Assembly (NCBI GenBank): GCA_043814605.1
Contig: JBDRJV010000037.1
Location: 31,899 to 95,898 of the forward strand
DNA: 64,000 bases
Source of the DNA: Candidatus Omnitrophota bacterium
GTDB lineage: Bacteria > Omnitrophota > Gorgyraeia > B26-G9
Direction: 5' to 3'
Within the stretch, counting starts at the first letter, position 1. Each line of letters begins with the position of its first letter. The notes under the pieces are model-generated. The model made no database searches and was not told where the DNA came from. It saw only the letters and a program-made list of their open reading frames with translations. Positions 5,556 through 41,972 of the stretch are shown here, piece by piece. The translations under genes were made by a program, and so were the position numbers.

Positions 5556-5560
5556 ATTAT

Positions 5561-22286: not shown

Positions 22287-23339
22287 ATGAAATTAAAAAA
22301 AATTATAAGCCCTTTAAATGTAATTGCTAAAATTACTGAAGTTAGATTGTTTAACAAAATTAGATTATTAAATGTTAATTTTTCTGTAACGTCACGCTGT
22401 AATTTAAATTGCAAATATTGTTGGAGAGGAGAGATCAGCAAAAATAATAATCATAATTTTCCGGACGAAATGAAACTTGTACAAATAAAGAAGGCTTTCC
22501 ATAATTTAAGGGAGCTGTATGCAGAAGTGATTAATATTACGGGAGGTGAACCTTTAGTCCGGGAAGATATCTCAGAGATAATCAGGGCTGGACTCAAAGA
22601 TAACTTATGGGTTTCTTTGACGACAAATGGGGTTCTTTTGACACAAAGATTAAAAGAGATTGATGAAGTCAAGCTTCTAATTGTAAGTTTAGACGGGAAA
22701 AAGGAATCTAATGATAGTTTAAGGGGTGAAGGGACTTTTTTAAAAGTAATAAAAGGTATAGAGTTAAGTAAAAACCTAGGCGTACCGCTTATGCTTTCTT
22801 GTGTAATTTCAGCAAAAACTCAAAATGAAGATATTGATTTTCTTTTAAATCTAGCTAAATTTTACGAAATTTATTGTATATTCCATCCTGTAAACGATAG
22901 GGGCATTGTAAATGATAAATGGGAAGTTAATTCGAATATAAAAAAAGTTAAAACAGAGAAAAACGAATTAATTAATAAACTAAATTATTTAAAAAATCAT
23001 CAACTGATTAATAAATCTTGTGGGGGTAAATATTGGTGTGAATTGATGAAAGAATTTCAGGAAAAACAAGAAATACTTAAAAATAAACTGTGTTTTGGCG
23101 GGAGGCTATTTGTAAATATTGAATCAAATGGGGTTGTGACATCTTGCGGGTTAAGCCAAGATCCTTTATTAAGAGACAGGATATTTGATCAGGGGTTTTT
23201 AGAAAACTATCAGTTAGCAGTAAGGAGAATTAGCTGTAAGGGGTGTTTTTGTTATTCATATAAAATGATAAATGATATTTCTAAATTTAATTTGCGAACA
23301 ATTAAGAATTTTTTAATACAAGATAAATTCAAGTATTAG
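22287..23339 (+). CDS. Radical SAM enzyme with SPASM/twitch-like C-terminus
   Basis: SVTSRCNLNCKYCW and ITGGEPLVRED are present. C-terminal cysteines occur in CFGGRLFVNIESNGVVTSCG and ISCKGCFCYSY. Similar to 46178-47167. Confidence 0.75.
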   Translation: MKLKKIISPLNVIAKITEVRLFNKIRLLNVNFSVTSRCNLNCKYCWRGEISKNNNHNFPDEMKLVQIKKAFHNLRELYAEVINITGGEPLVREDISEIIRAGLKDNLWVSLTTNGVLLTQRLKEIDEVKLLIVSLDGKKESNDSLRGEGTFLKVIKGIELSKNLGVPLMLSCVISAKTQNEDIDFLLNLAKFYEIYCIFHPVNDRGIVNDKWEVNSNIKKVKTEKNELINKLNYLKNHQLINKSCGGKYWCELMKEFQEKQEILKNKLCFGGRLFVNIESNGVVTSCGLSQDPLLRDRIFDQGFLENYQLAVRRISCKGCFCYSYKMINDISKFNLRTIKNFLIQDKFKY

Positions 23340-23387: not shown

Positions 23388-24746
23388 GTGGTAAATAACG
23401 TGAATATCAAAAGAAAAACGCAGAGCCTATGTATTGTTTGTAAACAAAGAGTCCCGGCTGAAGTTTACAAGAAAGACGAAAAAATATTTTTAAAAAAAAT
23501 ATGTCCTGAACATGGAGATATGGAGGTTTTTTTAGGACGAGCGGATTATTATGAATCATTAGATGAGTTCTTTTGTCTTATCCGTACGAATAAAAATAAA
23601 CACATGCCGACTCTTGAGCTTATTGTTAATTTCGATTGTAATATGAATTGTCCGATTTGTTATTTAGGCCCTCAGCGGAAAGAACTAAGCAAATTCTCAC
23701 CGACTCTTAATGAATTAGAAGATTTTATAAAACAAACAAAGTATTATTCTTTTGTCATTTCCGGAGCAGAGGCAACATGCCGGGATGATTTACTGGAAAT
23801 AATTAAATTACTTAAAAAATATGGTAAGACAGTAAGTATTAATACAAATGCTTTAAAATTAGCAGATTATAAATATGCGAAAAAAATGAAAAAAGCTGGG
23901 ATTGACCGTGTTAATATACAGTTTTCCGGTTTTAATGAAAAAGCTGAGAAGATTTTTAGAGGAGAAAATTATATAGAGATTAGGATTCAAGCTATGGAAA
24001 ATCTAAATAAGCTAGGCATCTCTATGGGACTAAATACTCTAATTGCCGGAAGCTTAAATGAGAATGATATAATTAGGGTACTAGAATTTGGCTTAAAATA
24101 TAAATCACTGCGTATGATAAATTTTTCAACATTAATTTTTGTGGGTGAGACAATGGATTATCCTTTAAATTATTACCTAATGCCCGATGATTTAATGATG
24201 CTTGTTGAAAAACAAACAAAAGGGAAAATTAAAAGAGAAAATCTTTATATTTTTAAAAAACTTGAAATTGTTATTTCATCATTTTTAAATAAAGATACTT
24301 GTTTTTATCGTCATGCTTATTTGCTGATCAAAAAAGGAAAAAATTATTTCCCAATAGATAATTTTATAAATCTAAAAAAACTGGAACCATATTTAGAATG
24401 TTATAAAAATCTTTTTAAAAAAAATAAGTTTCTGGGTAAAACCTTTCTGATTGTAATGACTCCATATTTATTGATTATAAATTATAAAATTTTAAAAATT
24501 TTAAGTGAAGTTACAAGAATGATCATATCCTATTTTTTTAAAAGATGGCTTTTCTTGCAGTCTAGCGATATAGTTTATTTACAATTTTCAGCGGTATGTG
24601 ATTTGTACAAAATTGATTATGATTTATTTAAAAGCTGTCAGTGTAAAACTATTTTCTTTTTTGATCGAGAAAATAATAAATTCTTTAAAAAAAGTAAGCC
24701 CATAGAAGATCATTATTGGTTGTTATGGAGAGATCGTGATAATTAA
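23388..24746 (+). CDS. Zinc-ribbon radical SAM enzyme, paralogue 1 of 6 (possibly Tes/GDGT-MAS-like)
   Basis: GTG start after aaggag. The N-terminal motif is CIVC-x20-CPEH. The radical SAM motif is DCNMNCPICY, with ISGAEATCRDD in the GGE position. Conserved extra cysteines occur in DTCFY, AVCD and KSC. Confidence 0.8.
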   Translation: MVNNVNIKRKTQSLCIVCKQRVPAEVYKKDEKIFLKKICPEHGDMEVFLGRADYYESLDEFFCLIRTNKNKHMPTLELIVNFDCNMNCPICYLGPQRKELSKFSPTLNELEDFIKQTKYYSFVISGAEATCRDDLLEIIKLLKKYGKTVSINTNALKLADYKYAKKMKKAGIDRVNIQFSGFNEKAEKIFRGENYIEIRIQAMENLNKLGISMGLNTLIAGSLNENDIIRVLEFGLKYKSLRMINFSTLIFVGETMDYPLNYYLMPDDLMMLVEKQTKGKIKRENLYIFKKLEIVISSFLNKDTCFYRHAYLLIKKGKNYFPIDNFINLKKLEPYLECYKNLFKKNKFLGKTFLIVMTPYLLIINYKILKILSEVTRMIISYFFKRWLFLQSSDIVYLQFSAVCDLYKIDYDLFKSCQCKTIFFFDRENNKFFKKSKPIEDHYWLLWRDRDN

Positions 24747-24779
24747 AGTTATTTGCGTAAAAAATATCAGGATAATATA

Positions 24780-26135
24780 ATGAACGGACAAGAAGTAATA
24801 AGAAAAACAACAAGCTTTTGCCCAGAATGTAAAACCACAATACCGGCAGAAGTTATAAAAAAAGATGGAAAAATTTTCCTGTGCAAGTTATGTCCTGAGC
24901 ATAAGGCGCAGGATTATTTTTTGGGTGAAGCTAAATACCATGAATCTTTAGAAGATTTTTATTTTAAGATACGTAAGAATATTAATAAACCTATAGTAAG
25001 TGTAGAGTTAGTGGTTAATTTTAGCTGTAATATGAATTGTCCGGTATGTTTTTTAGGAGATAATTTTGATACCTTAAAAAATTTTGACCCAACGGTTAAT
25101 GAAATAGAATCTTTTATTAAAAAAACAAAGTATAAATCATTTGTAATTTCCGGGGCGGAAGCAACTTGCCGGGACGATTTATTCGAAATAATTAAAATTC
25201 TAAAAAAATACAGCAAGACAGTGGGGATAAATACAAACGGGTTAAAATTAGCTGAATTTTCATATGTGAAAAAACTTAAAGCTGCAGGTGTGGACCGTGT
25301 AAATCTTCAATTTTCCGGTTTTAATTCAGATGCAGAAAAATATCTCAGAGGAGAAGATTACATCAATCAAAAACTTAAAGCCTTGGAAAATCTCAACAAA
25401 TTAAATATTGCTGTGGGATTAAATGCCCTTATTGCCGGAAATTGTAATGAAGATCAAATCGGTAATATTATCGAAATGGTTTCTGCTTATAGGGTAATAA
25501 AAATGGTTAATTTTGGATCTATGGTTTTTACGGGACTAGCAAAAGATTATCCCAGAAAAAATTATATAATGCCAGATGATTTGTTGAGGTTTGCTCAAGA
25601 ACAAACAAAAAATAAAATTAAACGCCAAAGTGTATATATATTCAAAAAACTTGAAATTGTAATTGCATCTTTTTTTAATAAAGATACTTGTTTTTACCAT
25701 CATTTATATTTAATTGTAAAAAAGAAAAATAGTTATAAACCGATAGATAAATTTCTCAATCTAGAAAAAATTGAATCTGTTTTAGAGCAATATAAAAATA
25801 TATATGGAAGAAGTAGTTTTATGGCTAAAATATATTTAATTATGATTCTTCCTTACCTATTAATTATAAATTACAAAATAATTTTAATTCTGGGTGAGAT
25901 TTTTCAAATGTTTTTTTCTTACTTTTTTAAGAAAGCCAATTTTCTTAAACAGCGCAATATTATTTATTTACTATTTTTTGTTGAATGTGATGTGTTACGG
26001 ATTGATTATGACATATTTAATAAATGTCCGTTTAAATCAATTTTCTTTTTTGACAAAAGTAATAATGGGTTTCAGAAAAAAAGGGATCCCATAGAAAATC
26101 ATTATTGGTTTTTATGGAAAGATAAAAAGAATTAG
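24780..26135 (+). CDS. Zinc-ribbon radical SAM enzyme, paralogue 2 of 6
   Basis: CPEC..CPEH, SCNMNCPVCF, ISGAEATCRDD, DTCFY, VECD and NKC. The track ORF starts at TTG 24753, but ATG 24780 (MNGQEV) aligns with the other paralogues. Confidence 0.8.
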   Translation: MNGQEVIRKTTSFCPECKTTIPAEVIKKDGKIFLCKLCPEHKAQDYFLGEAKYHESLEDFYFKIRKNINKPIVSVELVVNFSCNMNCPVCFLGDNFDTLKNFDPTVNEIESFIKKTKYKSFVISGAEATCRDDLFEIIKILKKYSKTVGINTNGLKLAEFSYVKKLKAAGVDRVNLQFSGFNSDAEKYLRGEDYINQKLKALENLNKLNIAVGLNALIAGNCNEDQIGNIIEMVSAYRVIKMVNFGSMVFTGLAKDYPRKNYIMPDDLLRFAQEQTKNKIKRQSVYIFKKLEIVIASFFNKDTCFYHHLYLIVKKKNSYKPIDKFLNLEKIESVLEQYKNIYGRSSFMAKIYLIMILPYLLIINYKIILILGEIFQMFFSYFFKKANFLKQRNIIYLLFFVECDVLRIDYDIFNKCPFKSIFFFDKSNNGFQKKRDPIENHYWFLWKDKKN

Positions 26136-26144
26136 GAATAGAAT

Positions 26145-27512
26145 ATGGAATTAAGAGTCATAAAAAGAAAAACAACAAGCTTGTGTCATGTCTGTAAACA
26201 AAAAGTCCCGGCGGAGGTTTTTAAGGAAAACAATAAGATTTTTTTACGTAAAATATGCCCGGAGCATGGGAATTTTGACGTTTTTTTAGGCCGGGCTCAA
26301 TTTTATGAGTCTTTAGACGATTATTTATTTTTGATTTATCCCGCTAAAAAAATACATAGTGAAGCCGCAGAATTAATGATCAGTTTTGATTGTAATATGC
26401 ATTGTCCGATTTGTTACTTGAAAGACGAGCGTAAATTTTTAAAAAAGTTTGATCCTTCGCTGTGTGAATTAGAAGAATTTATTAAGAATACCCAGCATCA
26501 TTATTTTGTTATTTCTGGGGCTGAGCCGACTTGTCGTGATGATTTATGTAAAATAATTAAAATACTCAAAAAATACAAAAAAACTGTCAGTTTGAATACA
26601 AATGCTCTAAAATTAGCAGATTATAGATATGTGACTAGTCTTAAGAAAGCGGGGGTTGATAAAGTTAATGTGCAGTTTTCTGGGTTAGATCCAAAAGCGG
26701 AATATTTTTTAAGAGGCAGTAATTATATAGATCTGAAATTAAAAGCGTTAGAGAATTTAGAAAAACTTAATATTTCTATAGGATTAAATACACTTATTGC
26801 GCGCACTCATAATGAAGATCAGGTGGGCAAAGTTATAACTCAAGCATTACAATATAATTCTTTGAGGATGATATGTTTTTCAACCATGGTTTTTATTGGT
26901 CATACAGAAAATTATGTTCTGGATACATATTTAGCTCCAGATGATTTACTAAGATTAGCAGAGGAACAGACACAAGGAAAAATTAAGAGCGAAAGCGTAT
27001 ATATTTTTAAAAAACTTATAATCGTTATATTATCTTTTTTTAATAAAAATACTTGTTTTTATGATTTTGTTTTTTTAATTATTAGGAAAAAAAAATCTTA
27101 TATTCCTATAGACAAATTGATGAATCTTAAAAAAACTGAGCGATGTTTAGATAAATATAAAAATATATATAAAAATAATCAAATTTTAGCCAAGGTTTAT
27201 TTAATATTTATTAGTCCGTATTTATTTTTAATCAATTATAAGATTTTGAAAATAGCAGGAAAACTTATTCGCATGATTTTTTCAAAATTTTTTAAAAAAT
27301 TAGGGATTTTTTATCCTAGTGATTTAATCCTGATCCAATTCTTTACAGATTGTGATCTGTACCGTATTGATTATGATATATTTAGAAAATGTCCGTTTAA
27401 AGCAGTTTTCTTTTTTGATAAAAATAAAGAAGGGTTTAAAAAAAGTGATCACCCGATAGAAGATAATTACTGGTTTTTATGGAATAATAAAAATGATTTA
27501 GGATTAATTTGA
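26145..27512 (+). CDS. Zinc-ribbon radical SAM enzyme, paralogue 3 of 6
   Basis: CHVC..CPEH, DCNMHCPICY, ISGAEPTCRDD, NTCFY, TDCD and RKC. Confidence 0.8.
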   Translation: MELRVIKRKTTSLCHVCKQKVPAEVFKENNKIFLRKICPEHGNFDVFLGRAQFYESLDDYLFLIYPAKKIHSEAAELMISFDCNMHCPICYLKDERKFLKKFDPSLCELEEFIKNTQHHYFVISGAEPTCRDDLCKIIKILKKYKKTVSLNTNALKLADYRYVTSLKKAGVDKVNVQFSGLDPKAEYFLRGSNYIDLKLKALENLEKLNISIGLNTLIARTHNEDQVGKVITQALQYNSLRMICFSTMVFIGHTENYVLDTYLAPDDLLRLAEEQTQGKIKSESVYIFKKLIIVILSFFNKNTCFYDFVFLIIRKKKSYIPIDKLMNLKKTERCLDKYKNIYKNNQILAKVYLIFISPYLFLINYKILKIAGKLIRMIFSKFFKKLGIFYPSDLILIQFFTDCDLYRIDYDIFRKCPFKAVFFFDKNKEGFKKSDHPIEDNYWFLWNNKNDLGLI

Positions 27513-28855
27513 TGGACGTAAGGCAAGTAAAAAGAAAAACTACAAGTTTGTGTAGTGTTTGTAAACAAATAATTCCGGCGGAGGTTTTTACAAAAAACAG
27601 AAAGGTATTTTTACGAAAAATATGCCAGGATCATGGAGAAATAGATGTTTTTTTAGGAGATGCTGATCTTTATGAACAGCTTGATGATTTTTATTTTAAA
27701 ATACGGTCTAATAAAAACAGCACGATAGCAAGTCCAGAGCTTATCGTTAATTTTAATTGTAATATGAATTGTCCGGTATGTTATTTAGGACACAATCGAA
27801 AATATTTGGAAAAATTTAATCCTTCGCTTGATGAAATTGATGTTTTTACTAAAAATACTAGTTATAAATCATTGGTTATTTCCGGAGCAGAGGCAACTTG
27901 CCGAAATGATTTATTTGAGATAATAAAAATTCTAAAAAAATACAGAAAAACTGTCAGCCTGAATACAAATGCCCTAAAGTTAGCAGATTATAAATATGTG
28001 GCTGGTCTTAAGAAGGCGGGGATTGACAGAGTTAATGTGCAATTTTCCGGATTTGATGCACAAGCGGAAAAATTTTTAAGAGGTGACAATTACATCGGCC
28101 AAAAAATAAAGGCCCTGAGGAATTTAAATAATTTAAATATTTCTATAGGGCTAAATTTATTGATTGCCGGGGGTTGCAATGAAAAACAGATGATTGAAGT
28201 TCTAAAAATGGTACCTCAATATGGATCCTTGCGGATGATTAATTTTAGTACGATGGTTTTTGCTGGAGGCGCTGAGAATTTCCCTCAAAAAAATTATTTA
28301 GTTGTTGACGATTTATTGAAAATAATTCAGGTTCAGACAAAGGGAATTATTAATCGGGAAGATATTTATATTTTTAAAAAACTAGAACTTGTAATTTCTT
28401 CATTTTTAAATAAATTTACATGTTTTTATCATCATGCTTTTTTAATCATTAGAAAAAAGAATGGTTATATGCCGATCAGTAATTTTTTAAATTTAAAAAA
28501 AACAGAGCTAATTTTAGAAAAATATAATAAAATATATCAAAATAGTAAATTTTTGGCTAAAATTTTTTTAATAATGAGCATGCCTTATTTATTATTTATA
28601 AATTGGAAAATATTAAAAATATTTAGCCAGATTTGGTTAATCTTATTTTCCTATTTTTTAAAACGTGGGCATTTTTTAAGACAAAGTAATTTAGTTTATT
28701 TACAATTTTGTGTTGAATGTGATAAATATCGCATTGATCATGATATATTTAAAAGTTGTACGTGTAAATCATTATTCTTTTTTGATAAAAGCGAAGATGG
28801 ATTTAGAAAAGTAAGTAAACCTGTTTTAAAGGATTACTGGATGTTATGGAAGTAA
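27512..28855 (+). CDS. Zinc-ribbon radical SAM enzyme, paralogue 4 of 6
   Basis: CSVC..CQDH, NCNMNCPVCY, ISGAEATCRND, FTCFY, VECD and KSC. The ATG at 27512 shares a base with the upstream stop (TGATG). Confidence 0.8.
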   Translation: MDVRQVKRKTTSLCSVCKQIIPAEVFTKNRKVFLRKICQDHGEIDVFLGDADLYEQLDDFYFKIRSNKNSTIASPELIVNFNCNMNCPVCYLGHNRKYLEKFNPSLDEIDVFTKNTSYKSLVISGAEATCRNDLFEIIKILKKYRKTVSLNTNALKLADYKYVAGLKKAGIDRVNVQFSGFDAQAEKFLRGDNYIGQKIKALRNLNNLNISIGLNLLIAGGCNEKQMIEVLKMVPQYGSLRMINFSTMVFAGGAENFPQKNYLVVDDLLKIIQVQTKGIINREDIYIFKKLELVISSFLNKFTCFYHHAFLIIRKKNGYMPISNFLNLKKTELILEKYNKIYQNSKFLAKIFLIMSMPYLLFINWKILKIFSQIWLILFSYFLKRGHFLRQSNLVYLQFCVECDKYRIDHDIFKSCTCKSLFFFDKSEDGFRKVSKPVLKDYWMLWK

Positions 28856-28859
28856 GAAT

Positions 28860-30458
28860 ATGCAACTAAAAAATGATATTAAGAAAATAGTATTAGTCCG
28901 TGCTCCGAAACATATGTGGCCATGGGTTAATGAATCAGACAATTTTCTATTACCATTAGGTTTACCGATTCTTGCTGCTGCAATAAGAAATCAATTTAAA
29001 AATAAAATTGAAGTAAAAATTATTGATTGTCCTCCGTTAAAGATTGGATGGGAAAGTTTAGAACAGATATTAAAGGAAGAGAAAGCGGATGTTATCGGAG
29101 CGGGAGAGGAAGCATTATATCATCATGAGGCCATAAGACTTTTTGAAATATCTAAAAGAATTAACCCTAATGTGATCAATATCGCCGGCGGACATTATTT
29201 TTCCTGGATGGTTAAAGATAGCTTGAAAAATCATCCCATTGATATTATTGTTAAATTTGAAGGAGAGCAGACAATTGTAGATTTGATTGATGCGCTAAAA
29301 CAAAGGCGGGATTTAAACTCTGTCCCGGGAATAGCTTTTAAGAAAAACAGCCAAATTATTGAAACTCAAGCTCGGCCAATTATTCAAAATCTTGATGAGC
29401 TGCCTATCCCTGCCTATGATTTAATGCCCATGCGTAAATATGGTGATAGAGCCATTTTTTGGCCGGAAAGTGCCACGATTGAAGGCAGCCGGGGGTGTAT
29501 AGATACTTGCAGTTATTGCTCATTATGGACATTTTGGGGGAAACACAATAACTCGGGATGCCGAGAAGATAAAATTAAGGCAACGCCTTTTTTTCGGCAA
29601 AAAAGTATTGATCATGTAATGCAGGAAATAGAGATTCTTTATGAAAAATATAATCGCCGATTGCTTTTATGGGCAGATCCGACTTTTAATGTTAATCCGG
29701 AGTGGACAGATAAACTTTGTGATGAAATATTAAGGAGAAATTACAAGTTAGAACATTGGGTATTTTTGCGTACTGATTATGCTTTAAGAGATGAAAAAAC
29801 CGGACTCTTAGCAAAAATGGTGCGTGCTGGTATTGTACATCCACTTTTTGGTGTAGAAAGATCTCATGCTGATGAGTGGAATAAGTTAGGAAAACATGGA
29901 TATAAAAGAGATGAGATTAAAGAGTTATTTCATATAATGAGAGATAAATATCCGCAAATTTTCCGGCAGGCAACTTTTATTACATGTTTACCTTTTGATG
30001 ATGAAAAATCAATGATGAATTTAGCTAAATATGCGGTTGAAATTGATTGTGATTTTCCGGTTTTGCATCCAGCGACGCCTGTACCGGGAACATACCTTTA
30101 TGAAGAGGTGATCAAAAATAATTTTCTTGAAGAAAAAGATCTTAAAGAAGCTTATTGGGAGTATCCATTACTAAAGAATATTCATGGATTATCCAGAACA
30201 GAGCAGGCTCGTTTAAATAGAAAAGCACAATTATATTGCATCCTAATGAATTTTAAAACTATGTTCAAAGGTATTTTCTCAAAATATCCGAGTAAAAGAT
30301 TTCGTTACCGTGAAGTATTAAGAGTTTTAATTTTAAAATCGTTTCAAATGTTTTCTTTGAAGGTTAAAGAATTATTTAATAAACCAACCGATTTAGAAAA
30401 GAAAATTCCTCAGTCGCTATTTTTTATTATGGAAAAGCCTAAGTGGTATGATAAATAG
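28860..30458 (+). CDS. B12-binding-domain radical SAM enzyme (subfamily B)
   Basis: N-terminal Rossmann-like domain (VIGAGEEALYHHE..NIAGGHYFS..IIVKFEGEQT), the LPIPAYDLMP motif and the radical SAM motif EGSRGCIDTCSYCSLW. Confidence 0.8.
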   Translation: MQLKNDIKKIVLVRAPKHMWPWVNESDNFLLPLGLPILAAAIRNQFKNKIEVKIIDCPPLKIGWESLEQILKEEKADVIGAGEEALYHHEAIRLFEISKRINPNVINIAGGHYFSWMVKDSLKNHPIDIIVKFEGEQTIVDLIDALKQRRDLNSVPGIAFKKNSQIIETQARPIIQNLDELPIPAYDLMPMRKYGDRAIFWPESATIEGSRGCIDTCSYCSLWTFWGKHNNSGCREDKIKATPFFRQKSIDHVMQEIEILYEKYNRRLLLWADPTFNVNPEWTDKLCDEILRRNYKLEHWVFLRTDYALRDEKTGLLAKMVRAGIVHPLFGVERSHADEWNKLGKHGYKRDEIKELFHIMRDKYPQIFRQATFITCLPFDDEKSMMNLAKYAVEIDCDFPVLHPATPVPGTYLYEEVIKNNFLEEKDLKEAYWEYPLLKNIHGLSRTEQARLNRKAQLYCILMNFKTMFKGIFSKYPSKRFRYREVLRVLILKSFQMFSLKVKELFNKPTDLEKKIPQSLFFIMEKPKWYDK

Positions 30459-31851
30459 AAATTATTGCAAAAACGGGAACAATAAAAATAATATTATTCG
30501 CAAGACTACAAGCAGATGTGTTGTTTGTTCACAACCAGTTGATGCATCGCTTATTAAAGTTTTGGATAAAGTATTTTTAGAAAAATTTTGTCCGGTACAT
30601 GGAAGTTTTTGTCTGCTGATTTCTGAACATGCAGATGAATATATGGATTTAGAAAAATTTTATTTTAATGTTAGCGAAAATAATCTTAATTTTTGGGCCT
30701 TAGAAGTAGATTTAACATTTGAATGTAATATGGAATGTCCAATTTGTGCTTGGGGTGAGGATGTGGGAATAGGCAAGACTAATAATCAGCCTGTAATGGA
30801 TGAAATAAAGCGGCTGTTAATTAAAACTAAAGCAAAAGTTATTAGATTCTCAGGAGGAGAGCCTACTTGTAGGAATGATTTGTTTGATATTATTAAAATG
30901 GCAAAAAAGTTAAATAAAAAAATTATTTTAAATACAAATGGTTTGAAATTAGCTAATTTTGAATATGTAAAAAAGTTAAAACAGAGCGGAGTTGATTGTG
31001 TTAATTTAACTTTTGATGGTTTTAATATAGAATTTGAAAGAAACATGAGAGGAAATAATTATTTAGAACCGAAACTTAAGGCGCTAGAAAATTTAAATAG
31101 TCTTTGTTTACCAACAGGATTAAATATTAGGGTTGTCCCAGAGGGGAATGAAGCTGAAATACCTAAAATTATTGATTTGGCTAAAAACAATAAAAATATT
31201 AAACTGCTTAGTTTCGGAACAGTTGGCTATTTGGGACATGCACAGAAGCGGAACATTAAAAAATACTTAATGCCAGATCAATTAGTAGATATTGTTGTTG
31301 AGAATGCCTGTGGTTTAATTTCTCGAGAAAGTATTCGATTATTTCAAAAGTTTTTTATTACGGTTAATTCTTTTTTTACGCAGCGTTGGTGTTTCTATGA
31401 TTCTGCAGCAATTATTTTAGTGCGGGATAAAGATAGTTTGGTTACATTGGATAAATATATTGATCTGCATGATTTAGAAAAGATTTTAGATAATTACGCG
31501 GATAAGTATAAACATAATAAAATATTAGCTAAAATATGTTTATTATTGGGTGGGATTAAAGTTTTTTTTAAGATAAAAAATTTAAGAGTAATAAAAGAAA
31601 TTGTTTTCAGAGGAATTAGTTTTTTTATGCAGAAAAAAAAATACTTAAACTCACAATTATTAATTTATGTAAGTATTAATACTAGTTGTGATCGGTATAA
31701 AATGGATGATATGATTGCTAAAAATTGTATTTTTTCAATGGCCTTTAAAGATGAAAACAATAAACTAAGCATTAAAGGCAGCGGTGCTTTTATTTGTGAT
31801 AAAATTTCTAGTTCAAGTAATAAGAATCAGTTAAAATTTATGGGCATTTAA
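30448..31851 (+). CDS. Zinc-ribbon radical SAM enzyme, paralogue 5 of 6 (divergent)
   Basis: CVVC..CPVH, ECNMECPICA, FSGGEPTCRND, RWCFY, TSCD and KNC. It overlaps the upstream gene by 11 nt. Confidence 0.75.
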   Translation: MINRNYCKNGNNKNNIIRKTTSRCVVCSQPVDASLIKVLDKVFLEKFCPVHGSFCLLISEHADEYMDLEKFYFNVSENNLNFWALEVDLTFECNMECPICAWGEDVGIGKTNNQPVMDEIKRLLIKTKAKVIRFSGGEPTCRNDLFDIIKMAKKLNKKIILNTNGLKLANFEYVKKLKQSGVDCVNLTFDGFNIEFERNMRGNNYLEPKLKALENLNSLCLPTGLNIRVVPEGNEAEIPKIIDLAKNNKNIKLLSFGTVGYLGHAQKRNIKKYLMPDQLVDIVVENACGLISRESIRLFQKFFITVNSFFTQRWCFYDSAAIILVRDKDSLVTLDKYIDLHDLEKILDNYADKYKHNKILAKICLLLGGIKVFFKIKNLRVIKEIVFRGISFFMQKKKYLNSQLLIYVSINTSCDRYKMDDMIAKNCIFSMAFKDENNKLSIKGSGAFICDKISSSSNKNQLKFMGI

Positions 31852-31865
31852 AAAGAGGAAAACTA

Positions 31866-32933
31866 ATGTTAAAAACGATTCAACATTCATTTCCGCTAAT
31901 CGGTAATGCTGAGAAAAATGCTCTCAATAAGGTGTTAAATACGAGCTTTCTGGCTCAAGGCAGAGAAGTTGAGAAGTTTGAAAAAGGTGTATCCGAATAT
32001 GTTGGATGTTTTCATGCCCAAGCTGTTAATTCGGGTACAGCAGCTTTGCATTTGGCGCTATTAGCTTTAGACATTAAAGCTGGGGATGAGGTAATTATAC
32101 CTAACTATGTGTGTCGGTCAGTATTAAACGCTGTGCAATATGCTAGAGCACGGCCGGTCTTATGTGATGTGGATAAACGCACATTTAACATATTACCAGC
32201 AGCTCTTAAGTCAAAAATTAATAAAAGAGCAAAAGCTGTAATTGTAGCGCATATGTTTGGCTTTCCGGCTCAGATGGATGAATTAAAAAAAATAAGAATC
32301 CCGATTATTGAAGATTGCGCACAAAGTATCGGAGCTGATTTTAAAGGAAAACTTGTGGGTAGTTTTGGAGATTTATCTATTTTTTCATTTGAAGGGACAA
32401 AAACAATTACTACCGGAGAAGGAGGTATGATTTTAACTAATTCCCAGAAATTATCAAATAAAATTACTAGATTTAAAGAGCCTTATGAGAAAGATCAAAT
32501 GCCTAAATATACATTTCGAATGAGTGATTTACAGGCAGCCATTGGCAGAGTTCAGTTAAAAAAATTACCCGGTTTTATTTTTAGAAGAAGAAAAATTGCA
32601 CAAATTTATAGAAAAGCATTTAAAAATTTAAAGGTTGATTTACCATTTGAAAATGATAATATGATTCATTCTTATCATCGATTTATAATTAGTCTAAAAA
32701 AGAAAAATCAAATAAATAAAGTCATTAATTATTGTCAAAAAAAAAGGGTAATGGTGAAAAGGCCGATTAAACATTATGCGCTTAACCAATATTTAGGCAT
32801 ATCAAATAAATTATTTCCGAATACGGATTTTATAATGAAACATTGTATTTCGATCCCCATATATCCAGCTTTAAGCGAAGCAGAAATTATGAGAATAATT
32901 AAAGTAGTTAAAGACGGGGTAAGTCAGTTGTGA
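31866..32933 (+). CDS. DegT/DnrJ/EryC1-family PLP-dependent sugar aminotransferase
   Basis: AVNSGTAALHLALLALDIKAGDEVIIPNY, IIEDCAQSIGADFKGKLVGSFGDLSIFSFEGTKTIT and GEGGMILTN are present, along with FRMSDLQAAIGRVQLKKL. Confidence 0.85.
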   Translation: MLKTIQHSFPLIGNAEKNALNKVLNTSFLAQGREVEKFEKGVSEYVGCFHAQAVNSGTAALHLALLALDIKAGDEVIIPNYVCRSVLNAVQYARARPVLCDVDKRTFNILPAALKSKINKRAKAVIVAHMFGFPAQMDELKKIRIPIIEDCAQSIGADFKGKLVGSFGDLSIFSFEGTKTITTGEGGMILTNSQKLSNKITRFKEPYEKDQMPKYTFRMSDLQAAIGRVQLKKLPGFIFRRRKIAQIYRKAFKNLKVDLPFENDNMIHSYHRFIISLKKKNQINKVINYCQKKRVMVKRPIKHYALNQYLGISNKLFPNTDFIMKHCISIPIYPALSEAEIMRIIKVVKDGVSQL

Positions 32934-33895
32934 ATATAAAATATGATTTTAGAAATGAACGGGAAAAGAATTTTCCTTTGATGCTTAATTTGGAAATAAC
33001 TAATATCTGTAATTATCAATGTATACATTGTCCTTATCCAAGTATTTCTCAAAGAAAAGATTATACCCCTAAGTTTATGTCCTGGGAAATTTTTAAGAAA
33101 ATAGCTGATCAAACTGCTAATTATCCTGAGACAATTTTTAGATTTGTTTGTGATGGGGAACCAATGATGCACCCAGATTTTTTAAGAATGGTTGAATATG
33201 TTAAAAACTTAAAAATCAGTCCGGTTTGTTTTACTACTAACGGATATTTTTTAACCCCGGAGGTTTCTCGTAAAATAGTTGAATTTGGTTGTGACCTTAT
33301 CGAAATAAGTTTAGATGCTTTTTCAGAGTATAGTTATAATAAAATCCGCCGGGGTGGAAATTATCATAAAGTTATTGATAACCTTAATTATCTTATCCAG
33401 TCAAAAAATGAACTATCTGCAAAGAGTTCAAAGATTATGGTTAGTATTATAGATCAGCCTTTAGTTAAAAATGAGATAACTACATTTAAGAATTTTTGGC
33501 AGGATAAGGTAGATTATGTGATTACAAGAGTATTAACGAGTGCGGGCGGGTTTATTAAGGAATCTATTCGAGATAATAAAACTGATGTGGAAATACGATG
33601 GCCTTGTCCTTTATTATGGCGGAGATTGTTTATTAATGTAGATGGTTGGGCTGAATATTGTGTGGATGATTGGTTAGATCAATCGATTTTAGGTGATGTA
33701 AATAAAGAGAGTATTGCCTCTATCTGGGGAGGCCAAAAATATCGAGATTTAAGAAAAAATCACATAAATAATAATTTTAGTTACAATGAAAAGTGTGCAC
33801 AATGTCAGGATTGGAGAGCCAGAACCTGGGAAAATGATTATTTTCATGCAATAGAGAGGATTTTTAATTTAAATTTTAAAAATGAGAATTATTGA
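32930..33895 (+). CDS. Radical SAM enzyme with SPASM-like C-terminus
   Basis: GTG start overlapping the upstream stop. LEITNICNYQCIHCPYP and CDGEPMMHPD are present. C-terminal cysteines occur in WPCPLLW..INVDGWAEYCVDDW and CAQCQDW. Confidence 0.8.
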   Translation: MNIKYDFRNEREKNFPLMLNLEITNICNYQCIHCPYPSISQRKDYTPKFMSWEIFKKIADQTANYPETIFRFVCDGEPMMHPDFLRMVEYVKNLKISPVCFTTNGYFLTPEVSRKIVEFGCDLIEISLDAFSEYSYNKIRRGGNYHKVIDNLNYLIQSKNELSAKSSKIMVSIIDQPLVKNEITTFKNFWQDKVDYVITRVLTSAGGFIKESIRDNKTDVEIRWPCPLLWRRLFINVDGWAEYCVDDWLDQSILGDVNKESIASIWGGQKYRDLRKNHINNNFSYNEKCAQCQDWRARTWENDYFHAIERIFNLNFKNENY

Positions 33896-35222
33896 TAGTA
33901 CAAAAAGCTTATGTCCGGTTTGTTTACAATGGATTGATTCTGCGGTAGTTACAAAAGATGACCATAAAGTATATTTAGAAAAAAAATGTCCGGAACATAA
34001 AGGAAGTTTGGTGTTTCTTTCTCCGGATGCAGAAGGATTTATTGTTTTAAGAGATTTCTACTTTCAAACTCATCAAAAAATATTTCCCCAAACTCGCTAC
34101 CTTTGTTTTTTAACCCCTAAGTGCAACCTTTCTTGTCCAATTTGTTTTTTGGATTCAGGAATGCAGGATAAAGAAGATATTAATAGGAAAGACTTAGTTA
34201 GGTTTTTGAATAATGGCAAAAAAGAAATAATTATTTTTGGAGCAGAGCCAACTTGCCGTAAAGATATTTTTGAAATAATCAGTTTTCTTAAAAAAAAGCA
34301 GCATTCGGTGAGTCTATACACTAATGGGATAAAATTAGTTGATTATAAATATGCGGAGAAGATTAAGCAAACAAAAGTAAACAAAATATATTTTCAATTT
34401 GATGGTTTTGATGATTCTATTTATGAGGTTTTACGTAAAGTAAAGCTCAAAGATCTCAAGATTAAGGCATTAGATAATTTAAAAAAAATTAATATGCCTG
34501 TGGTTTTAGATGTTGCCTTAGCCAGAGATGTTAATATTAACCAAATGGGATCTATTTTTGAATACGCTCTGAATAACAATTTTATTAAAACAATAAACTA
34601 TATCGCTTATGTGCGTTCTGGTGGAGGAGGAAAATATCTAGCGAATCAAGCAATTATGCCGGATGAATTAATAGACGAAATAAGTAAAGCTACAAAAATG
34701 AGAATAAACAGAGTTAATATGAGAATTTTTCAGAAGTTATTATATGTGTATATGTCAACTTTAAAGAAAAGAACATGTTTTTATATTAAATATTTTTGGG
34801 TTTTCCGCACAGAAAATAACCAGTATTTAACATTTGATCAAATAATTAATTTTGATATGCTAGAAAAAATATTAAATAAGTATGTATTATTAGTAAAAAA
34901 ACAAAATCAGATAATTGCTAGTATGTATTTAGTACTGAAACTTCCTTTTTTACTTTTTTCTATAAAAAACAATAAAGCTTTTTTTCAAATGCTGAAAATG
35001 ATTTTTTCGCATGTTTTTAATCGGGGAGATTATTCTTGCGTTAGGGGTGAGTTTTTACAACTAATATTTACTACTGCCTGTGATGTGGATAAGGCAGATT
35101 TGAAGATTTCGCAGCGTTGTCATGTGGGCATGATGTATAAAAATAAACAAGAAAAATTAGAAGTTTTTAATGAAAATGGTATGTATTTATTAAATCAGGA
35201 AATTCAGAAGAAAGGTGTTTAG
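33882..35222 (+). CDS. Zinc-ribbon radical SAM enzyme, paralogue 6 of 6 (divergent)
   Basis: CPVC..CPEH, PKCNLSCPICF, FGAEPTCRKD, RTCFY, TACD and QRC. It overlaps the upstream gene by 14 nt. Confidence 0.75.
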   Translation: MRIIDSTKSLCPVCLQWIDSAVVTKDDHKVYLEKKCPEHKGSLVFLSPDAEGFIVLRDFYFQTHQKIFPQTRYLCFLTPKCNLSCPICFLDSGMQDKEDINRKDLVRFLNNGKKEIIIFGAEPTCRKDIFEIISFLKKKQHSVSLYTNGIKLVDYKYAEKIKQTKVNKIYFQFDGFDDSIYEVLRKVKLKDLKIKALDNLKKINMPVVLDVALARDVNINQMGSIFEYALNNNFIKTINYIAYVRSGGGGKYLANQAIMPDELIDEISKATKMRINRVNMRIFQKLLYVYMSTLKKRTCFYIKYFWVFRTENNQYLTFDQIINFDMLEKILNKYVLLVKKQNQIIASMYLVLKLPFLLFSIKNNKAFFQMLKMIFSHVFNRGDYSCVRGEFLQLIFTTACDVDKADLKISQRCHVGMMYKNKQEKLEVFNENGMYLLNQEIQKKGV

Positions 35223-35227
35223 CTAAA

Positions 35228-36715
35228 ATGCGGATTGGATTTATTTATTCTGAAATGGAAACACTGGGTATCCAATATTTATCTAGTTTTTTAAAACAAA
35301 ATGGATATACAACCAAGCTTTTTTTTGATCCGCAATTATTTGCAGATACAATTTCTCAGAGCAAGTCTTTAAACAAGGTCTTTGACTATAAAAAACAATT
35401 ATTCAAGCAGATAGAAGCATTTAAGCCGGATTTTTTAGCATTTTCTGTTTTAAGTACTAACTACCATTGGGCATTTAAATTTACAAAAGAAATAAAAGCA
35501 AGGTTGAACATTCCTATTGTTTGGGGGGGGGTTCATCCTACTTTAGACCCGGAATCTGTTTTAAAACTTGATTGTGTGGATTATATAATAGCGGGAGAAG
35601 CAGAAGAAGCATTGCTTGAGTTTGTTAATAAATTTAAGAATAAGAATTCTCTGAGTAAATTGAGAAATGTATATACAAAGGTTAATGGAAAAATTATAAA
35701 AAATTTATTAAGGCCATTAATAAATAATTTAGATCAATTACCTTTTCCGGATAAAGATATATTTTATGACATTATGCCATATTTAAAAGATCATTATACA
35801 ATTGTAACGGGAAGAGGATGTCCGCATGCGTGTACTTTTTGTTGCAATCACAGTTTAAGGAAAATAAATGAGCAAAATAGTGGGAAAAATAATTTTTTAA
35901 GACGTAGATCAGCAGACAATGTGGTTACTGAATTAAAGCAAGCTAAAGAAAAATATCATATCAAAGATGTTTTTTTTGAGGATAGTACTTTTACTTACGA
36001 TAAAAAGTGGTTGAAGGAATTTGCAATCTTGTACCATGATTCAATTAATTTGAATTGCTTTTGCTGGGTTCATCCGGCTGAAATTGATGAGGAAGTAGTA
36101 GGATACTTAAGATTAATGAATTGCCGTGCTGTTGAAATGGGAGTAGAAAGTATAAACTCAGAGATTAGGGCCAAATGGTTAGGGCGTAACTATCCCAATG
36201 AGAAGATTGAAAACGCATTAAAATTATTAAAGAAAAATAAGATTTTTTGCATCACAGATAATATTATCGGATTACCCGAAGAAGAAATAAAAGATTTAGA
36301 AAATTTAGTAGATTTTTATAATAAATTACGGCCTGAAAAAATTTATATATTTGAACTAAGAATGTTTCCAAATACTCAGATGCATGAATTGTATCATGAT
36401 TATCAAGACAGCTTTAAAGAAAACAATGATGGATTGTCCCCGTTTACGTTATCTTCTTCACAGAACAAAATGGCGAAAAAAATTATTGTTTTAATTTTAG
36501 CGATACAATTTTTGCCTAAAAAAGTAATCAATTTTTTATTAAAAAATAAGTTATACAAGTTTTTCCCCGCTATAAATTTATATAATCTTTTAGAAATTAC
36601 GCCTTTTTTCTTGAATTTATTCAAAAGAGAAAAACTTTGGTTTCCCATTCGCGGAACAAGAAAAAGGTATTTATTTTTTGCTAAAAAGATGATTATAAAT
36701 TTTATTAAACGTTAA
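35228..36715 (+). CDS. B12-binding-domain radical SAM enzyme (subfamily A), contains a G9 tract
   Basis: MRIGFIYSEMETLGIQYLSSFLKQNGYTTKLFFDPQLF, VWGGVHPT, LPFPDKDIF, VTGRGCPHACTFCCNH and FLPKKVINFLLKNKLY. WGG is encoded by tgg ggg ggg g. Confidence 0.8.
   Translation: MRIGFIYSEMETLGIQYLSSFLKQNGYTTKLFFDPQLFADTISQSKSLNKVFDYKKQLFKQIEAFKPDFLAFSVLSTNYHWAFKFTKEIKARLNIPIVWGGVHPTLDPESVLKLDCVDYIIAGEAEEALLEFVNKFKNKNSLSKLRNVYTKVNGKIIKNLLRPLINNLDQLPFPDKDIFYDIMPYLKDHYTIVTGRGCPHACTFCCNHSLRKINEQNSGKNNFLRRRSADNVVTELKQAKEKYHIKDVFFEDSTFTYDKKWLKEFAILYHDSINLNCFCWVHPAEIDEEVVGYLRLMNCRAVEMGVESINSEIRAKWLGRNYPNEKIENALKLLKKNKIFCITDNIIGLPEEEIKDLENLVDFYNKLRPEKIYIFELRMFPNTQMHELYHDYQDSFKENNDGLSPFTLSSSQNKMAKKIIVLILAIQFLPKKVINFLLKNKLYKFFPAINLYNLLEITPFFLNLFKREKLWFPIRGTRKRYLFFAKKMIINFIKR
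35523..35531 (+). repeat. G9 homopolymeric tract inside a coding sequence
   Basis: Nine consecutive G at 35523-35531 (tt ggggggggg tt) encode W-G-G-V of the B12-radical SAM gene. It is the longest G/C run I found in the window. Confidence 0.9.
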
Positions 36716-36738
36716 GTAGTGATCAGTAAGGATAAATA

Positions 36739-38199
36739 ATGAAAGTTGCTTTTATTAGCTGCTCTAATGAAAGTTTAGGGATCGAATATTTATCAGCGTA
36801 TTTAAAACAGCAGGGACATAAAACTAGAGTTTTTATTGATCCCCAATTATTTAATGATGAACATTTAGATGTTCCTTTGGCTGCAAAAATTTTTAGTTAC
36901 CAAAAAAACCTAGTGAAAAAGGTCATTGATTATAATCCGGATTTAATCGGATTTTCTGTAGTTAGCGATTTTTATCATTGGGCTTGTGATTTAGCCCGAG
37001 AATTTAAAAAACATCTAAATGTACCGATAATTTTTGGCGGTATCCATGCGAGTTCTGTCCCGGAAGAAGTGATTAAAAATAAATTTGTAGATATGGTTTG
37101 CATTGGTGAAGGGGAAGAAGCTTTAGCTGAGGTTGTTAATCGATTAGAAAATAGACAAAATCCGGTTGATGTTTTGAATGTTTGGGCAAAAAAAGATGGC
37201 AATATTATTAAAAATAAATTACGACCATTGATAAATGATTTAGATCATATCCCTTATCCAGATAAGAAAATATATTATGATACAAGCTTTCATTTTCAAA
37301 TAGGTTATTATACAATAGCCAGCCGAGGTTGTCTTTATACTTGTACATATTGTCATCACTCATTTTTGAGAACAATTTATCCTCATTCTGATTATTATCG
37401 TGTTCGTAGTGTAGGCAATATCATAGAAGAATTATCCATTAATTTTGATAAAAAAAAACATAAAGTTATCCGTTTTTCCGATGATATTTTCCCTTTTAAA
37501 GAAGAGTGGTTAAAGGAATTTGCAGATAAATTTAAGGCGCGTATAAATGCTCCGTTTATTTGTTATATTCATCCGGACACTATTAATCCAGAAAATATTG
37601 ATTTATTAAAAAAAAGCGGATGCGTGGAAGTACAATTAGGAATCCAGACTCTCTATGAGCAGACTCAGAAAAAAATACTAAACAGAAATATTTCTCAAAA
37701 AAGATGGCAGGAAGTATTTTTATTGCTTTATAATGCAAACATTAAAATTACAGCAGAAAATATATTAGGTATTCCCAATCAGGAAATTTGTGAAATTGAA
37801 GATTTAATTAGGTTTTACTGTTATAATAAAGCTGATCGAATTCAGGTTTTTTGGCTTAAATTTTATCCTAAAACAAAAATTAAAGAGTTTATTAACCAAA
37901 TTGACAAAAATACGCAAGTGGATAACTCAAATAAAGAGAAAACTTTTACACAAGGCGGTGATATTTTTACAAAGGAACTTGCCAAATTAAGAATTATTTT
38001 TTGTTTATTGCATTTTCTGCCCCCTAAAGTAATTGAATGGCTGCTTGCTAATAAAAGATATCAATCTTGTTTTTTAATCCCTTTATGGATTTTAAATTTA
38101 ATATCGAATTTTACGAGTAAAGTTGCTTCTGATAAAATCACACGCAAAAGGGAGTGGATGAAATACTTAATCTTTGTCCAGAGAAGGTTTATTCGGTAA
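36739..38199 (+). CDS. B12-binding-domain radical SAM enzyme (subfamily A), tandem paralogue
   Basis: MKVAFISCSNESLGIEYLSAYLKQQGHKTRVFIDPQLF, IFGGIHAS, IPYPDKKIY, ASRGCLYTCTYCHHS and FLPPKVIEWLLANKRY. Confidence 0.8.
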   Translation: MKVAFISCSNESLGIEYLSAYLKQQGHKTRVFIDPQLFNDEHLDVPLAAKIFSYQKNLVKKVIDYNPDLIGFSVVSDFYHWACDLAREFKKHLNVPIIFGGIHASSVPEEVIKNKFVDMVCIGEGEEALAEVVNRLENRQNPVDVLNVWAKKDGNIIKNKLRPLINDLDHIPYPDKKIYYDTSFHFQIGYYTIASRGCLYTCTYCHHSFLRTIYPHSDYYRVRSVGNIIEELSINFDKKKHKVIRFSDDIFPFKEEWLKEFADKFKARINAPFICYIHPDTINPENIDLLKKSGCVEVQLGIQTLYEQTQKKILNRNISQKRWQEVFLLLYNANIKITAENILGIPNQEICEIEDLIRFYCYNKADRIQVFWLKFYPKTKIKEFINQIDKNTQVDNSNKEKTFTQGGDIFTKELAKLRIIFCLLHFLPPKVIEWLLANKRYQSCFLIPLWILNLISNFTSKVASDKITRKREWMKYLIFVQRRFIR

Positions 38200-41591: not shown

Positions 41592-41972
41592 TAAAAAAAT
41601 AATATCGTATAAAGCGATACTTATTAATTTTACCGCTAAAATTTTTCTACTATTGGTTAGAGGACTAATTATATTACTGTTGTTTCCAAAGAGAAAGATA
41701 GTATTGTAGATATTACTGGTTTATAAAATGATTCGAAAAAAATAACTAATCGATTAAGCTTAATAAAATGTAATTTTAATTATTTTAAAGGACTAACTAT
41801 TAGTTGATTGATAAGGTTGTTACGAATACCGAGACTAATATAATAAGCGATTTAAATTAATCGCCATGTCCTGTAGAAGGTATAATTAGTTTACGTAATT
41901 ATAATAATGTTGTGGTGAATTTTCAAGAAAATATTTTTCAATTAATATATACAATTCGGCGAGAGGATCTAG

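Follow-up and report, generated by a model that had tools for sequence, protein, structure and literature searches.

We found six radical SAM (S-adenosylmethionine) proteins, encoded between positions 23,388 and 35,222 of a 64,000-nucleotide stretch of a Candidatus Omnitrophota bacterium genome (GenBank assembly GCA_043814605.1, contig JBDRJV010000037.1; the whole stretch is called the window below), that belong to the MJ0619/Tes/GDGT-MAS superfamily of tetraether-lipid synthases, with a likeness that runs well past the generic radical SAM core. Judged from their sequences, they are not Tes orthologs and form a distinct short-form clade, which we describe as new: its members are predicted to hold three metal centers with a relocated ligand of the auxiliary cluster, and they appear to have undergone expansion in Omnitrophota, with ties to B12-radical SAM enzymes and to enzymes of aminosugar type. 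As an overall explanation, we tentatively posit, at a little less than even confidence, that the enzymes of the clade apply radical chemistry of the Tes type to an envelope glycoconjugate anchored on a lipid. A sugar compound with a lipid anchor is the probable substrate, rather than an ordinary membrane lipid.

The six paralogs and their clade

The six open reading frames (ORFs) are intact, encode proteins of 446-467 residues (aa) and share 31-60% pairwise identity:

23388-24746, + strand: Tes-like radical SAM paralog 1, 452 aa; type 1-4 lineage; Pfam Zn_ribbon_HMPTM plus Radical_SAM
24753-26135, + strand: Tes-like paralog 2, 460 aa if started at a TTG, 451 aa if at the ATG of 24780; one of the type 1-4 tandem duplicates
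26145-27512, + strand: Tes-like paralog 3, 455 aa
27509-28855, + strand: Tes-like paralog 4, 448 aa; its knuckle reads CQDH
30448-31851, + strand: Tes-like paralog 5, 467 aa; represents an old lineage of its own, whose orthologs occur in the metagenome-assembled genomes (MAGs) L001 and L004
33882-35222, + strand: Tes-like paralog 6, 446 aa; an old lineage placed after the DegT-SPASM pair in most Omnitrophota loci

Paralog 1 is 100% identical to P0001, a protein of an Omnitrophota MAG. An earlier note, made from the letters of this DNA and the translations of its ORFs, had called six homologous ORFs here, and we located all of them on the + strand. Four of its starts agree with those given above, whereas 24780 and 27512 are internal ATGs of ORFs 2 and 4, which match the deposited protein lengths of 451 and 447 aa. 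The span also includes three genes outside the family (a B12-radical SAM gene at 28860, a DegT gene at 31866 and a SPASM radical SAM gene at 32930).

Invariant in all six copies (paralog 1 numbering) are C15, C18, C39 and H42 of a CX2CX20CX2H knuckle, C84, C88 and C91 of a CX3CX2C radical SAM site, the G126-x-E128-x-T130-C131-R132 motif, C305, C404-D405, D410 and C417. The CN(M/L)xCP(I/V)C and G(A/G)E(A/P)TCR motifs that the earlier note had read were recovered in every copy. Its CP(E/V/D)H knuckle stands as CxxC...CxxH in all six, with the CQDH of copy 4 departing from the narrower pattern, and the MJ0619 N-terminal motif that it gave was correct (KTLSLCPIC...CPEHG). The hydrophobic stretch that it pointed out is likewise present, the top 19-residue hydropathy window at residues ~345-370 scoring 1.6-2.35 in the six paralogs versus 1.17 at best in GDGT-MAS. 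We take the resemblance among the six sequences to be homology and not chance. Ratios of nonsynonymous to synonymous substitution (dN/dS) of 0.20-0.32 among the four tandem copies (0.22-0.27 for paralog 2 against its siblings) indicate that all four are maintained by selection.

Every paralog carries the Pfam domain PF23545 Zn_ribbon_HMPTM, the N-terminal domain of MJ0619 (46-59 bits, cutoff 27), followed by PF04055 Radical_SAM (57-80 bits, cutoff 29.5). The top NCBIfam matches are Tes (NF045702; 123-159 bits, cutoff 450) and TrsS (NF045646; 135-153 bits, cutoff 490), with MoaA and every other NCBIfam family much weaker. The GDGT-MAS structure 7TOL is matched at E=3.5e-40 with a single protein and at E=1.2e-68 with a 13-sequence profile, with chain residues 20-477 aligned, whereas MoaA structures are matched at E 1e-6 to 1e-19 over the core only. 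In a Foldseek comparison, an AlphaFold2 model of paralog 1 (pLDDT 92.6, pTM 0.92) matches GDGT-MAS over its full length (TMq 0.77 to 7TOM and 0.74 to 7TOL; 471-473 columns, E ~1e-30), the remaining radical SAM structures all having TMq <=0.39. As both the profile and the Foldseek alignments are full-length, the likeness to GDGT-MAS reaches through the C-terminal domain. According to the model and the hydropathy, the helical subdomain that constitutes lipid pocket 2 in GDGT-MAS is kept in the window proteins and is more hydrophobic. At 34 positions the family is conserved at >=80%; 33 of them carry the same residue in GDGT-MAS, and none of the conserved polar residues is specific to the clade, which therefore kept the Tes catalytic scaffold and gained no conserved polar residues of its own. 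The Tes/GDGT-MAS link drawn by the earlier note thus holds at the superfamily level, on the ribbon domain, the top NCBIfam matches and the structure matches, and it does not extend to membership in the Tes equivalog, given the bit scores and the absence of [Fe4S4]N, Met439, Tyr459 and Cys470 detailed below.

We also considered TrsS identity and rejected it: the scores of 135-153 bits lie far under the cutoff of 490, TrsS-like genes fall outside the Omnitrophota clade and their gene context is unrelated. No in-frame UGA/selenocysteine was found in the six ORFs. As a separate observation, the region L032 4202-13520 of Ellagibacter isourolithinifaciens DSM 104140 contains a TrsS-like gene (342 bits, probably cut at its selenocysteine) whose neighbors encode a molybdopterin oxidoreductase, a membrane subunit resembling NrfD, a glycosyltransferase-like protein of arsenosugar type and an acetyltransferase.

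An exhaustive profile search over 1.84 billion representatives yielded 920 of them at E<=1e-30 and at least 150 clusters at 50% identity. The best 150 representatives all lie below E=1e-58 and are mostly ~430-460 aa long, and 149 of these 150 are without the double CX3CX2C of GDGT-MAS type (the exception is P0202, which has the second motif just upstream of the radical SAM one). The short form is therefore a substantial uncharacterised clade, which overturns the tiny family of ~10 proteins returned by a word-indexed homologue search. Among species-representative genomes, full-length relatives at 28-50% identity come almost all from Omnitrophota MAGs. In a neighbor-joining tree every Omnitrophota copy falls in one clade, to which an archaeal Tes homologue, other long forms, a Brocadiaceae homologue and the TrsS-like Ellagibacter protein are outgroups. 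The six window copies resolve into three old lineages (type 1-4, type 5 and type 6), each with orthologs in two other MAGs, and the type 1-4 lineage has undergone a four-fold tandem amplification specific to the window. A fourth old Tes-like lineage is present at L001 8621-9967 and L004 8581-9915, and its ortholog is absent from the window. Accordingly, we define the clade by a length of ~430-470 aa, a single CX3CX2C, C305 and C417 (mostly also C404) and arrays with DegT, SPASM-radical SAM and B12-radical SAM genes, a definition that the window copies fit.

Our literature search returned no description of this family or its arrays in Omnitrophota, and the public annotation of these proteins is 'radical SAM protein' only. 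Mss has been described in the literature as only remotely related to Tes. A short-form subclade (P0105, P0114, P0157 and P0160) features one or two N-terminal hemerythrin domains, with P0160 additionally carrying a P-type ATPase, and the domain composition of this branch suggests a link to O2, NO or iron sensing.

Predicted metal sites compared with GDGT-MAS

In published GDGT-MAS, a rubredoxin-like iron is held by C9, C12, C33 and H36, the [Fe4S4]N cluster by C73, C77 and C80 plus a His, and, in addition to the radical SAM cluster, the [Fe4S4]C cluster is held by three cysteines and the labile Met439, with Tyr459 conserved. We rebuilt the GDGT-MAS sequence from alignments, checked that residues 9, 12, 33, 36, 73, 77, 80, 439 and 459 were the expected amino acids, and aligned it, along with four window copies, to a hidden Markov model of 123 family members; the three [Fe4S4]C cysteines were inferred in this analysis to be C338, C455 and C470. 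The correspondence (paralog 1 against GDGT-MAS) is as follows:

C15, C18, C39, H42 against C9, C12, C33, H36: kept
no counterpart against C73, C77, C80: the entire CPYDCGLCPNH insert is deleted
C84, C88, C91 against C98, C102, C105: kept
G126, E128, T130 against G144, E146, T148 of the GGE SAM-binding motif: kept
C305 against C338 (HQHC): kept
S401 against M439: S, F, N or T in the four aligned copies, Met in none
C404 against M442: one helical turn off Met439
D405, D410 against D443, D448: kept
C417 against C455: kept
T421 against Y459: T, S or M in the four aligned copies, Tyr in none
no counterpart against C470 (PFC motif): absent

The residues of the rubredoxin-like site are 88-98% conserved across the 123 relatives, and C338, C455, Y459 and C470 are all retained by the long-form homologues P0054, P0016 and P0202. 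The four extra cysteines that the earlier note had proposed for a new auxiliary cluster are indeed invariant among the six copies. In the 123 family sequences they part ways, with C305 and C417 conserved at 95% each, C404 at 72% and C131 of the TCR motif at only 15%. Position 131 is mostly L, V, M or I in the family, and Val in GDGT-MAS. A cysteine conserved at 15% in an otherwise aliphatic position is unlikely to be a ligand, and we rejected the TCR cysteine as a fourth cluster ligand on the family level. What survives of the proposed four-cysteine cluster is the ancestral pair of Tes [Fe4S4]C ligands (C305 and C417) with C404 as the relocated candidate.

We thus predict three metal sites per protein: the rubredoxin-like CX2CX20CX2H site, which would bind a mononuclear iron; the [4Fe-4S] cluster that cleaves SAM; and, in the C-terminal part, an auxiliary [4Fe-4S] cluster on C305 and C417 (the equivalents of Tes C338 and C455), with C404 in place of the lost C470 and Met439. 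On the alignment, the auxiliary cluster appears to be kept, its third cysteine having apparently moved from C470 to C404 with the Met cap gone, and the surface [Fe4S4]N electron-relay cluster would be deleted. The relocated ligand and this deletion would together make them three-center and not four-center proteins.

The locus and its counterparts in relatives

Positions 1-53,500 of the window form one very large locus of envelope-glycan type, with the dcw cluster directly downstream. The G+C content of the window is 25-35%, all ORFs of >=150 aa lie on the + strand, and the GC skew is positive in each 2-kb bin. Twenty radical SAM genes are packed in ~53 kb of the window, interspersed with glycosyltransferases and aminotransferases: the six Tes-like genes, nine B12-binding genes (starts at 10787, 20818, 28860, 35228, 36739, 40167, 43235, 44660 and 47388) and five others (2511, 22287, 32930, 41973 and 46178). 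The locus further displays five PMT_2 genes (ArnT-family GT-C), three GT2, one GT1, three DegT (7050-8282, 31866-32933 and 38925-40139), WbqC, a CE4 deacetylase, Wzy_C, DUF362 and two SAM methyltransferases. No fatty-acid, isoprenoid, glycerolipid/glycerol-ether or acyltransferase genes were detected in the 64-kb window, nor were an NAD-dependent sugar 4,6-dehydratase or a sugar nucleotidyltransferase. The neighbors of the paralogs, and the dcw genes, are:

17362-18063, + strand: WbqC-like, at the head of the block; syntenic in L001, L004 and L016
18132-18968, + strand: conserved protein, syntenic in L001, L004 and L016
18949-20805, + strand: YfhO-family membrane glycosyltransferase; homologues carry PF09586; syntenic in L001, L004 and L016
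20818-22284, + strand: B12-radical SAM, directly upstream of the array region
22287-23339, + strand: MoaA/SPASM-like radical SAM, directly upstream of paralog 1
28860-30458, + strand: B12-binding radical SAM, between paralogs 4 and 5; Pfam B12-binding plus Radical_SAM; best NCBIfam match BchE, below cutoff
31866-32933, + strand: DegT-family pyridoxal-phosphate aminotransferase (Pfam DegT, E=1e-91), which opens the DegT-SPASM-Tes-like triad
32930-33895, + strand: SPASM radical SAM, BtrN-like (Pfam Radical_SAM plus SPASM); closest PDB entries BtrN 4M7S/4M7T, E=3e-10
35228-38199, + strand: two B12-radical SAM paralogs, the second starting at 36739, directly downstream of paralog 6
38154-38918, + strand: ArnC/DPMS-like GT2; closest PDB entry ArnC, E=5e-17; syntenic in L001, L012 and L016
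38925-40139, + strand: second DegT aminotransferase of the block, syntenic in L001, L012 and L016
54913, 56336 and 58022, + strand: MraW, penicillin-binding-protein transpeptidase and Mur ligase of the dcw cluster

With intergenic distances of -46 to +68 nt throughout, the interval from 15776 to 41591 looks like one operon. No Rfam match to an upstream riboswitch or regulatory RNA was obtained, and a literature search on WbqC found nothing informative. The DegT enzyme at 31866 keeps the Schiff-base Lys and has the Gln:scyllo-inositol transaminase 7B0D as its closest PDB entry (E=9e-56), with the sugar aminotransferases QdtB, perosamine synthase and ArnB also near. Its partner at 32930 is a candidate anaerobic alcohol dehydrogenase by its likeness to BtrN, which is a radical SAM 2-deoxy-scyllo-inosamine dehydrogenase. 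As no 4,6-dehydratase or nucleotidyltransferase was detected, the keto substrates may come from this BtrN-like dehydrogenase. The GT2 at 38154 is nearest to ArnC, DPMS and GtrB, which are polyprenyl-phosphate glycosyltransferases. The B12-radical SAM proteins of the window match HpnJ, 'lipid biosynthesis B12/radical SAM', BchE and PhpK best, all far below cutoff. The five PMT_2 genes together with YfhO and Wzy_C imply many periplasmic glycosyl-transfer steps with lipid-linked donors; genes of these three kinds are located in 837-7057, 15776-17362, 18949-20805 and 50091-51755. The radical SAM protein at 41973-43166, preceded by the largest intergenic gap (41592-41972), passes the cutoff of the AmmeMemoRadiSam system (231 versus 220 bits), and no AMMECR1/Memo partner is seen among its annotated neighbors.

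We labelled the ORFs of related loci against the window proteins and compared gene order. A repeated module was thus uncovered, which reads DegT (31866 type), SPASM radical SAM (32930 type), one or two Tes-like genes, DegT (7050 type), a Tes-like gene, and three or four B12-radical SAM genes (36739 type), often accompanied by the GT2 of 38154 type, WbqC and the pair of 18132 and the membrane protein 18949. At least 12 independent loci in Omnitrophota contain it, 2-5 Tes-like copies being present per ~20 kb, and the earlier note's view of six copies in one locus as unprecedented loses its force against these arrays. MAGs L001 and L004 are syntenic with the window, and the B12-radical SAM gene at 28860 has orthologs (65-81% identical) at the same position in both. 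The DegT-SPASM-Tes-like triad is kept in L001, L003, L004, L006, L007 and L009-L011. A metagenome contig from JGI that bears the triad (L003) also keeps, at 1-2635, the GT2, DUF362 and small protein (14245-14826) that occupy 12250-14826 of the window.

In P0061 (950 aa), a B12-radical SAM enzyme 40% identical to the 20818/35228 types is fused to a type-6 Tes-like enzyme (41% identical), the closest window relative of its C-terminal half being paralog 6. This fusion argues that B12-radical SAM and Tes-like enzymes act together; P0061 could be either a true fusion or a frameshift read-through. The distant homologues P0018 and P0032 are single-copy and without DegT, SPASM or B12 partners. At L083 8001-10551 and L084 7394-9651, a distant single-copy Zn_ribbon_HMPTM radical SAM gene is immediately followed by a UbiE/CMAS-type SAM methyltransferase, a pairing that is possibly lipid-related.

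Predicted function and known systems

The genomic context points to the tailoring of an envelope glycoconjugate and not to membrane-lipid synthesis: the conserved partners, along with PMT_2, the CE4 deacetylase and Wzy_C, follow the logic of envelope glycosylation on a lipid carrier (polyprenyl-phosphate sugar). We propose that oxidation, amination, methylation and other tailoring would be carried out anaerobically by radical SAM enzymes, with the BtrN-like SPASM dehydrogenase and DegT converting C-OH to C=O and then to C-NH2, and the B12-radical SAM enzymes performing C-methylation or rearrangement, in a pathway that would also include the ArnC-like polyprenyl-phosphate glycosyltransferase and the GT-C transferases (YfhO and PMT_2). 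The Tes-like fold would thread the hydrophobic part of a membrane-anchored intermediate, such as a polyprenyl-phosphate-linked sugar or a glycolipid. A 5'-deoxyadenosyl radical would then take an H from an unactivated sp3 carbon, and the resulting substrate radical may be parked on, or oxidised by, the auxiliary cluster, leading to a C-C (or C-S) bond. The Tes reaction itself passes through a C-S intermediate. Homology suggests that the reactive carbon lies in the hydrocarbon tail, the partners that it lies near the sugar. The three old paralog lineages may serve different steps or positions, with the four-fold tandem copy as a recent amplification. ArnD and DprE1/E2 are precedents for the tailoring of lipid-attached sugars. 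HpnJ and calditol synthase have been reviewed as further ones.

Several points weigh against this proposal. C404 is missing in 28% of the 123 family sequences, so that an auxiliary site with three cysteines may not occur throughout the family. In Tes it is the tail of the lipid that reacts while its head group stays out of the protein, and sugar tailoring would consequently need a different binding mode; a role at the tail, in turn, finds no supporting lipid-synthesis genes in the window. Furthermore, Omnitrophota envelope-glycan loci are mosaic and hypervariable, and the support from genomic context is circumstantial.

The function suggested by the earlier note is that of true synthases of tetraether or other membrane-spanning lipids, which would couple alkyl or isoprenoid lipids tail-to-tail (e.g., to products like the branched glycerol dialkyl glycerol tetraethers, brGDGTs), with the B12-radical SAM enzymes adding methyl branches and the glycosyltransferase and DegT genes building glycosidic head groups. 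The full-length GDGT-MAS fold match with its retained catalytic scaffold, the conserved auxiliary-cluster cysteines C338 and C455 and the hydrophobic C-terminal helices would all fit such an activity, as would the fact that the tailoring of lipid tails is known from just two families, the Tes-like and the B12-domain radical SAM enzymes (Tes, Gms, GrsA/B and ladderane candidates), and the best, though below-cutoff, matches of the window's B12-radical SAM enzymes to the 'lipid biosynthesis B12/radical SAM' and HpnJ models; moreover, a brGDGT role has been proposed in the literature for bacterial Tes homologues. Nevertheless, we consider it unlikely, and as stated it has no direct support: the bit scores are one third of the Tes cutoff, the four defining features [Fe4S4]N, Met439, Tyr459 and Cys470 fail, no lipid-synthesis gene (fatty-acid, isoprenoid, glycerol-ether or acyltransferase) lies in the 64 kb, and the genes conserved alongside encode an aminotransferase, a BtrN-like dehydrogenase and enzymes of polyprenyl-phosphate sugars. 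Since a single Tes enzyme suffices for GDGT in archaea, 3-4 conserved paralog lineages would be left unexplained, and a Black Sea survey that reports Tes homologues in several other bacterial phyla names Omnitrophota just for Mss and ElbD. A related and doubtful possibility is that arrays of Tes-like C-C coupling enzymes, linked physically and genetically to B12-radical SAM methylases, serve to make, with no need for oxygen, hydrocarbon portions that are cross-linked, branched or cyclised, for envelope glycolipids (e.g., bolaform or membrane-spanning ones) or for glycans linked to polyprenyl. If so, orphan lipid biomarkers of branched or tetraether type would have an unrecognised source in the ultra-small Omnitrophota anaerobes, and the short form would show Tes chemistry to proceed with no [Fe4S4]N relay and with one ligand of the auxiliary cluster relocated.

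A soluble polar substrate, such as a nucleotide sugar or an aminocyclitol/aminoglycoside-like compound, acted on in a sugar or secondary-metabolite pathway by enzymes that have lost lipid binding, strikes us as rather improbable. The DegT and BtrN-like pair does mirror BtrS/BtrN of 2-deoxystreptamine biosynthesis, B12-radical SAM methylases and glycosyltransferases are typical of aminoglycoside pathways, and radical SAM oxidation may supply keto sugars in a window that has no NAD-dependent 4,6-dehydratase. However, the C-terminal lipid-pocket helices are kept and are more hydrophobic than in GDGT-MAS, conserved polar residues peculiar to the clade are lacking, a gene for a 2-deoxy-scyllo-inosose or inositol-phosphate synthase is not found, and the five PMT_2, YfhO, Wzy_C and ArnC-like GT2 genes favor envelope assembly on a lipid carrier. 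Far less probable still is the maturation of a peptide or protein, as in peptides that ribosomes make and that are modified post-translationally (RiPPs), by the six proteins with the SPASM and B12-radical SAM enzymes. Arrays of the latter two are known from RiPP clusters (e.g., proteusins) and several NCBIfam RiPP maturase models match weakly, but these matches are limited to the radical SAM core, the partners are sugar enzymes, and there is neither a precursor gene nor space for one, the gaps being -46 to +68 nt and the larger ones without small ORFs. The pterin methyltransferase activity originally annotated for MJ0619, or TrsS function, is the least credible of all. The HMPTM label persists in the Pfam domain and in database names (e.g., P0015) and TrsS scores equal Tes scores, but the GDGT-MAS structure paper deemed the pterin annotation incorrect, and TrsS is countered by its bit scores, by the lack of selenocysteine and by TrsS-like genes that lie in an unrelated context and fall outside the clade.

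Returning to the lipid-anchored envelope glycoconjugate, its tailoring enzymes would form a clade that keeps the Tes catalytic scaffold with a different predicted cofactor set (three metal sites, one ligand relocated). The locus provides a concrete gene set for asking what Tes-like enzymes do in bacteria, which matters to lipid-biomarker research, and bears on how strict anaerobes with tiny cells make unusual envelope molecules by almost entirely radical chemistry.

Among known systems, Tes/GDGT-MAS (M. jannaschii MJ0619; 7TOL, 7TOM; NF045702) shares with the window proteins the rubredoxin-like site, CX3CX2C, C338 and C455, D443 and D448, and the four-layer fold including the C-terminal helical lipid-pocket subdomain. 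The window proteins differ in being ~40-60 residues shorter, at 22-23% identity, with a new Cys at the M442 position, and as a multi-copy family in a glycan-type locus rather than a lipid context. To our knowledge, Tes/GDGT-MAS is the only enzyme shown to couple two unactivated sp3 carbons via a carbon-sulfur intermediate on an iron-sulfur cluster. TrsS (NF045646) is of similar length (its model has 441 positions), has the Zn ribbon plus radical SAM architecture and is matched as strongly as Tes, whereas the TrsS-like genes examined occur in one copy and, in Eggerthellaceae, adjoin a molybdopterin oxidoreductase gene. Other bacterial Zn_ribbon_HMPTM radical SAM proteins (P0018 and P0032) have the same Pfam architecture at 22-26% identity and are single-copy and UbiE/CMAS-paired. 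MoaA, the GTP 3',8-cyclase, has a radical SAM core of the same subgroup, but only this core aligns (TM 0.38), without the Zn ribbon or the helical C-terminal domain; its C-terminal three-cysteine auxiliary cluster with an open iron site is a point of likeness to the cluster predicted for the window proteins.

HpnJ and the calditol synthase Cds are precedents for radical SAM enzymes acting on the sugar head groups of membrane lipids, and they belong to radical SAM subfamilies different from that of the six proteins. The BtrS/BtrN and Arn pathways are without Tes-like or B12-radical SAM enzymes, and the window matches them at the level of families and not of orthologs. Like BtrS/BtrN, the window has a DegT aminotransferase adjoining a BtrN-like radical SAM enzyme, and the ArnB/ArnC/ArnD/ArnT pathway is paralleled by its ArnB-like DegT, ArnC-like GT2, CE4 deacetylase and ArnT-family PMT_2.

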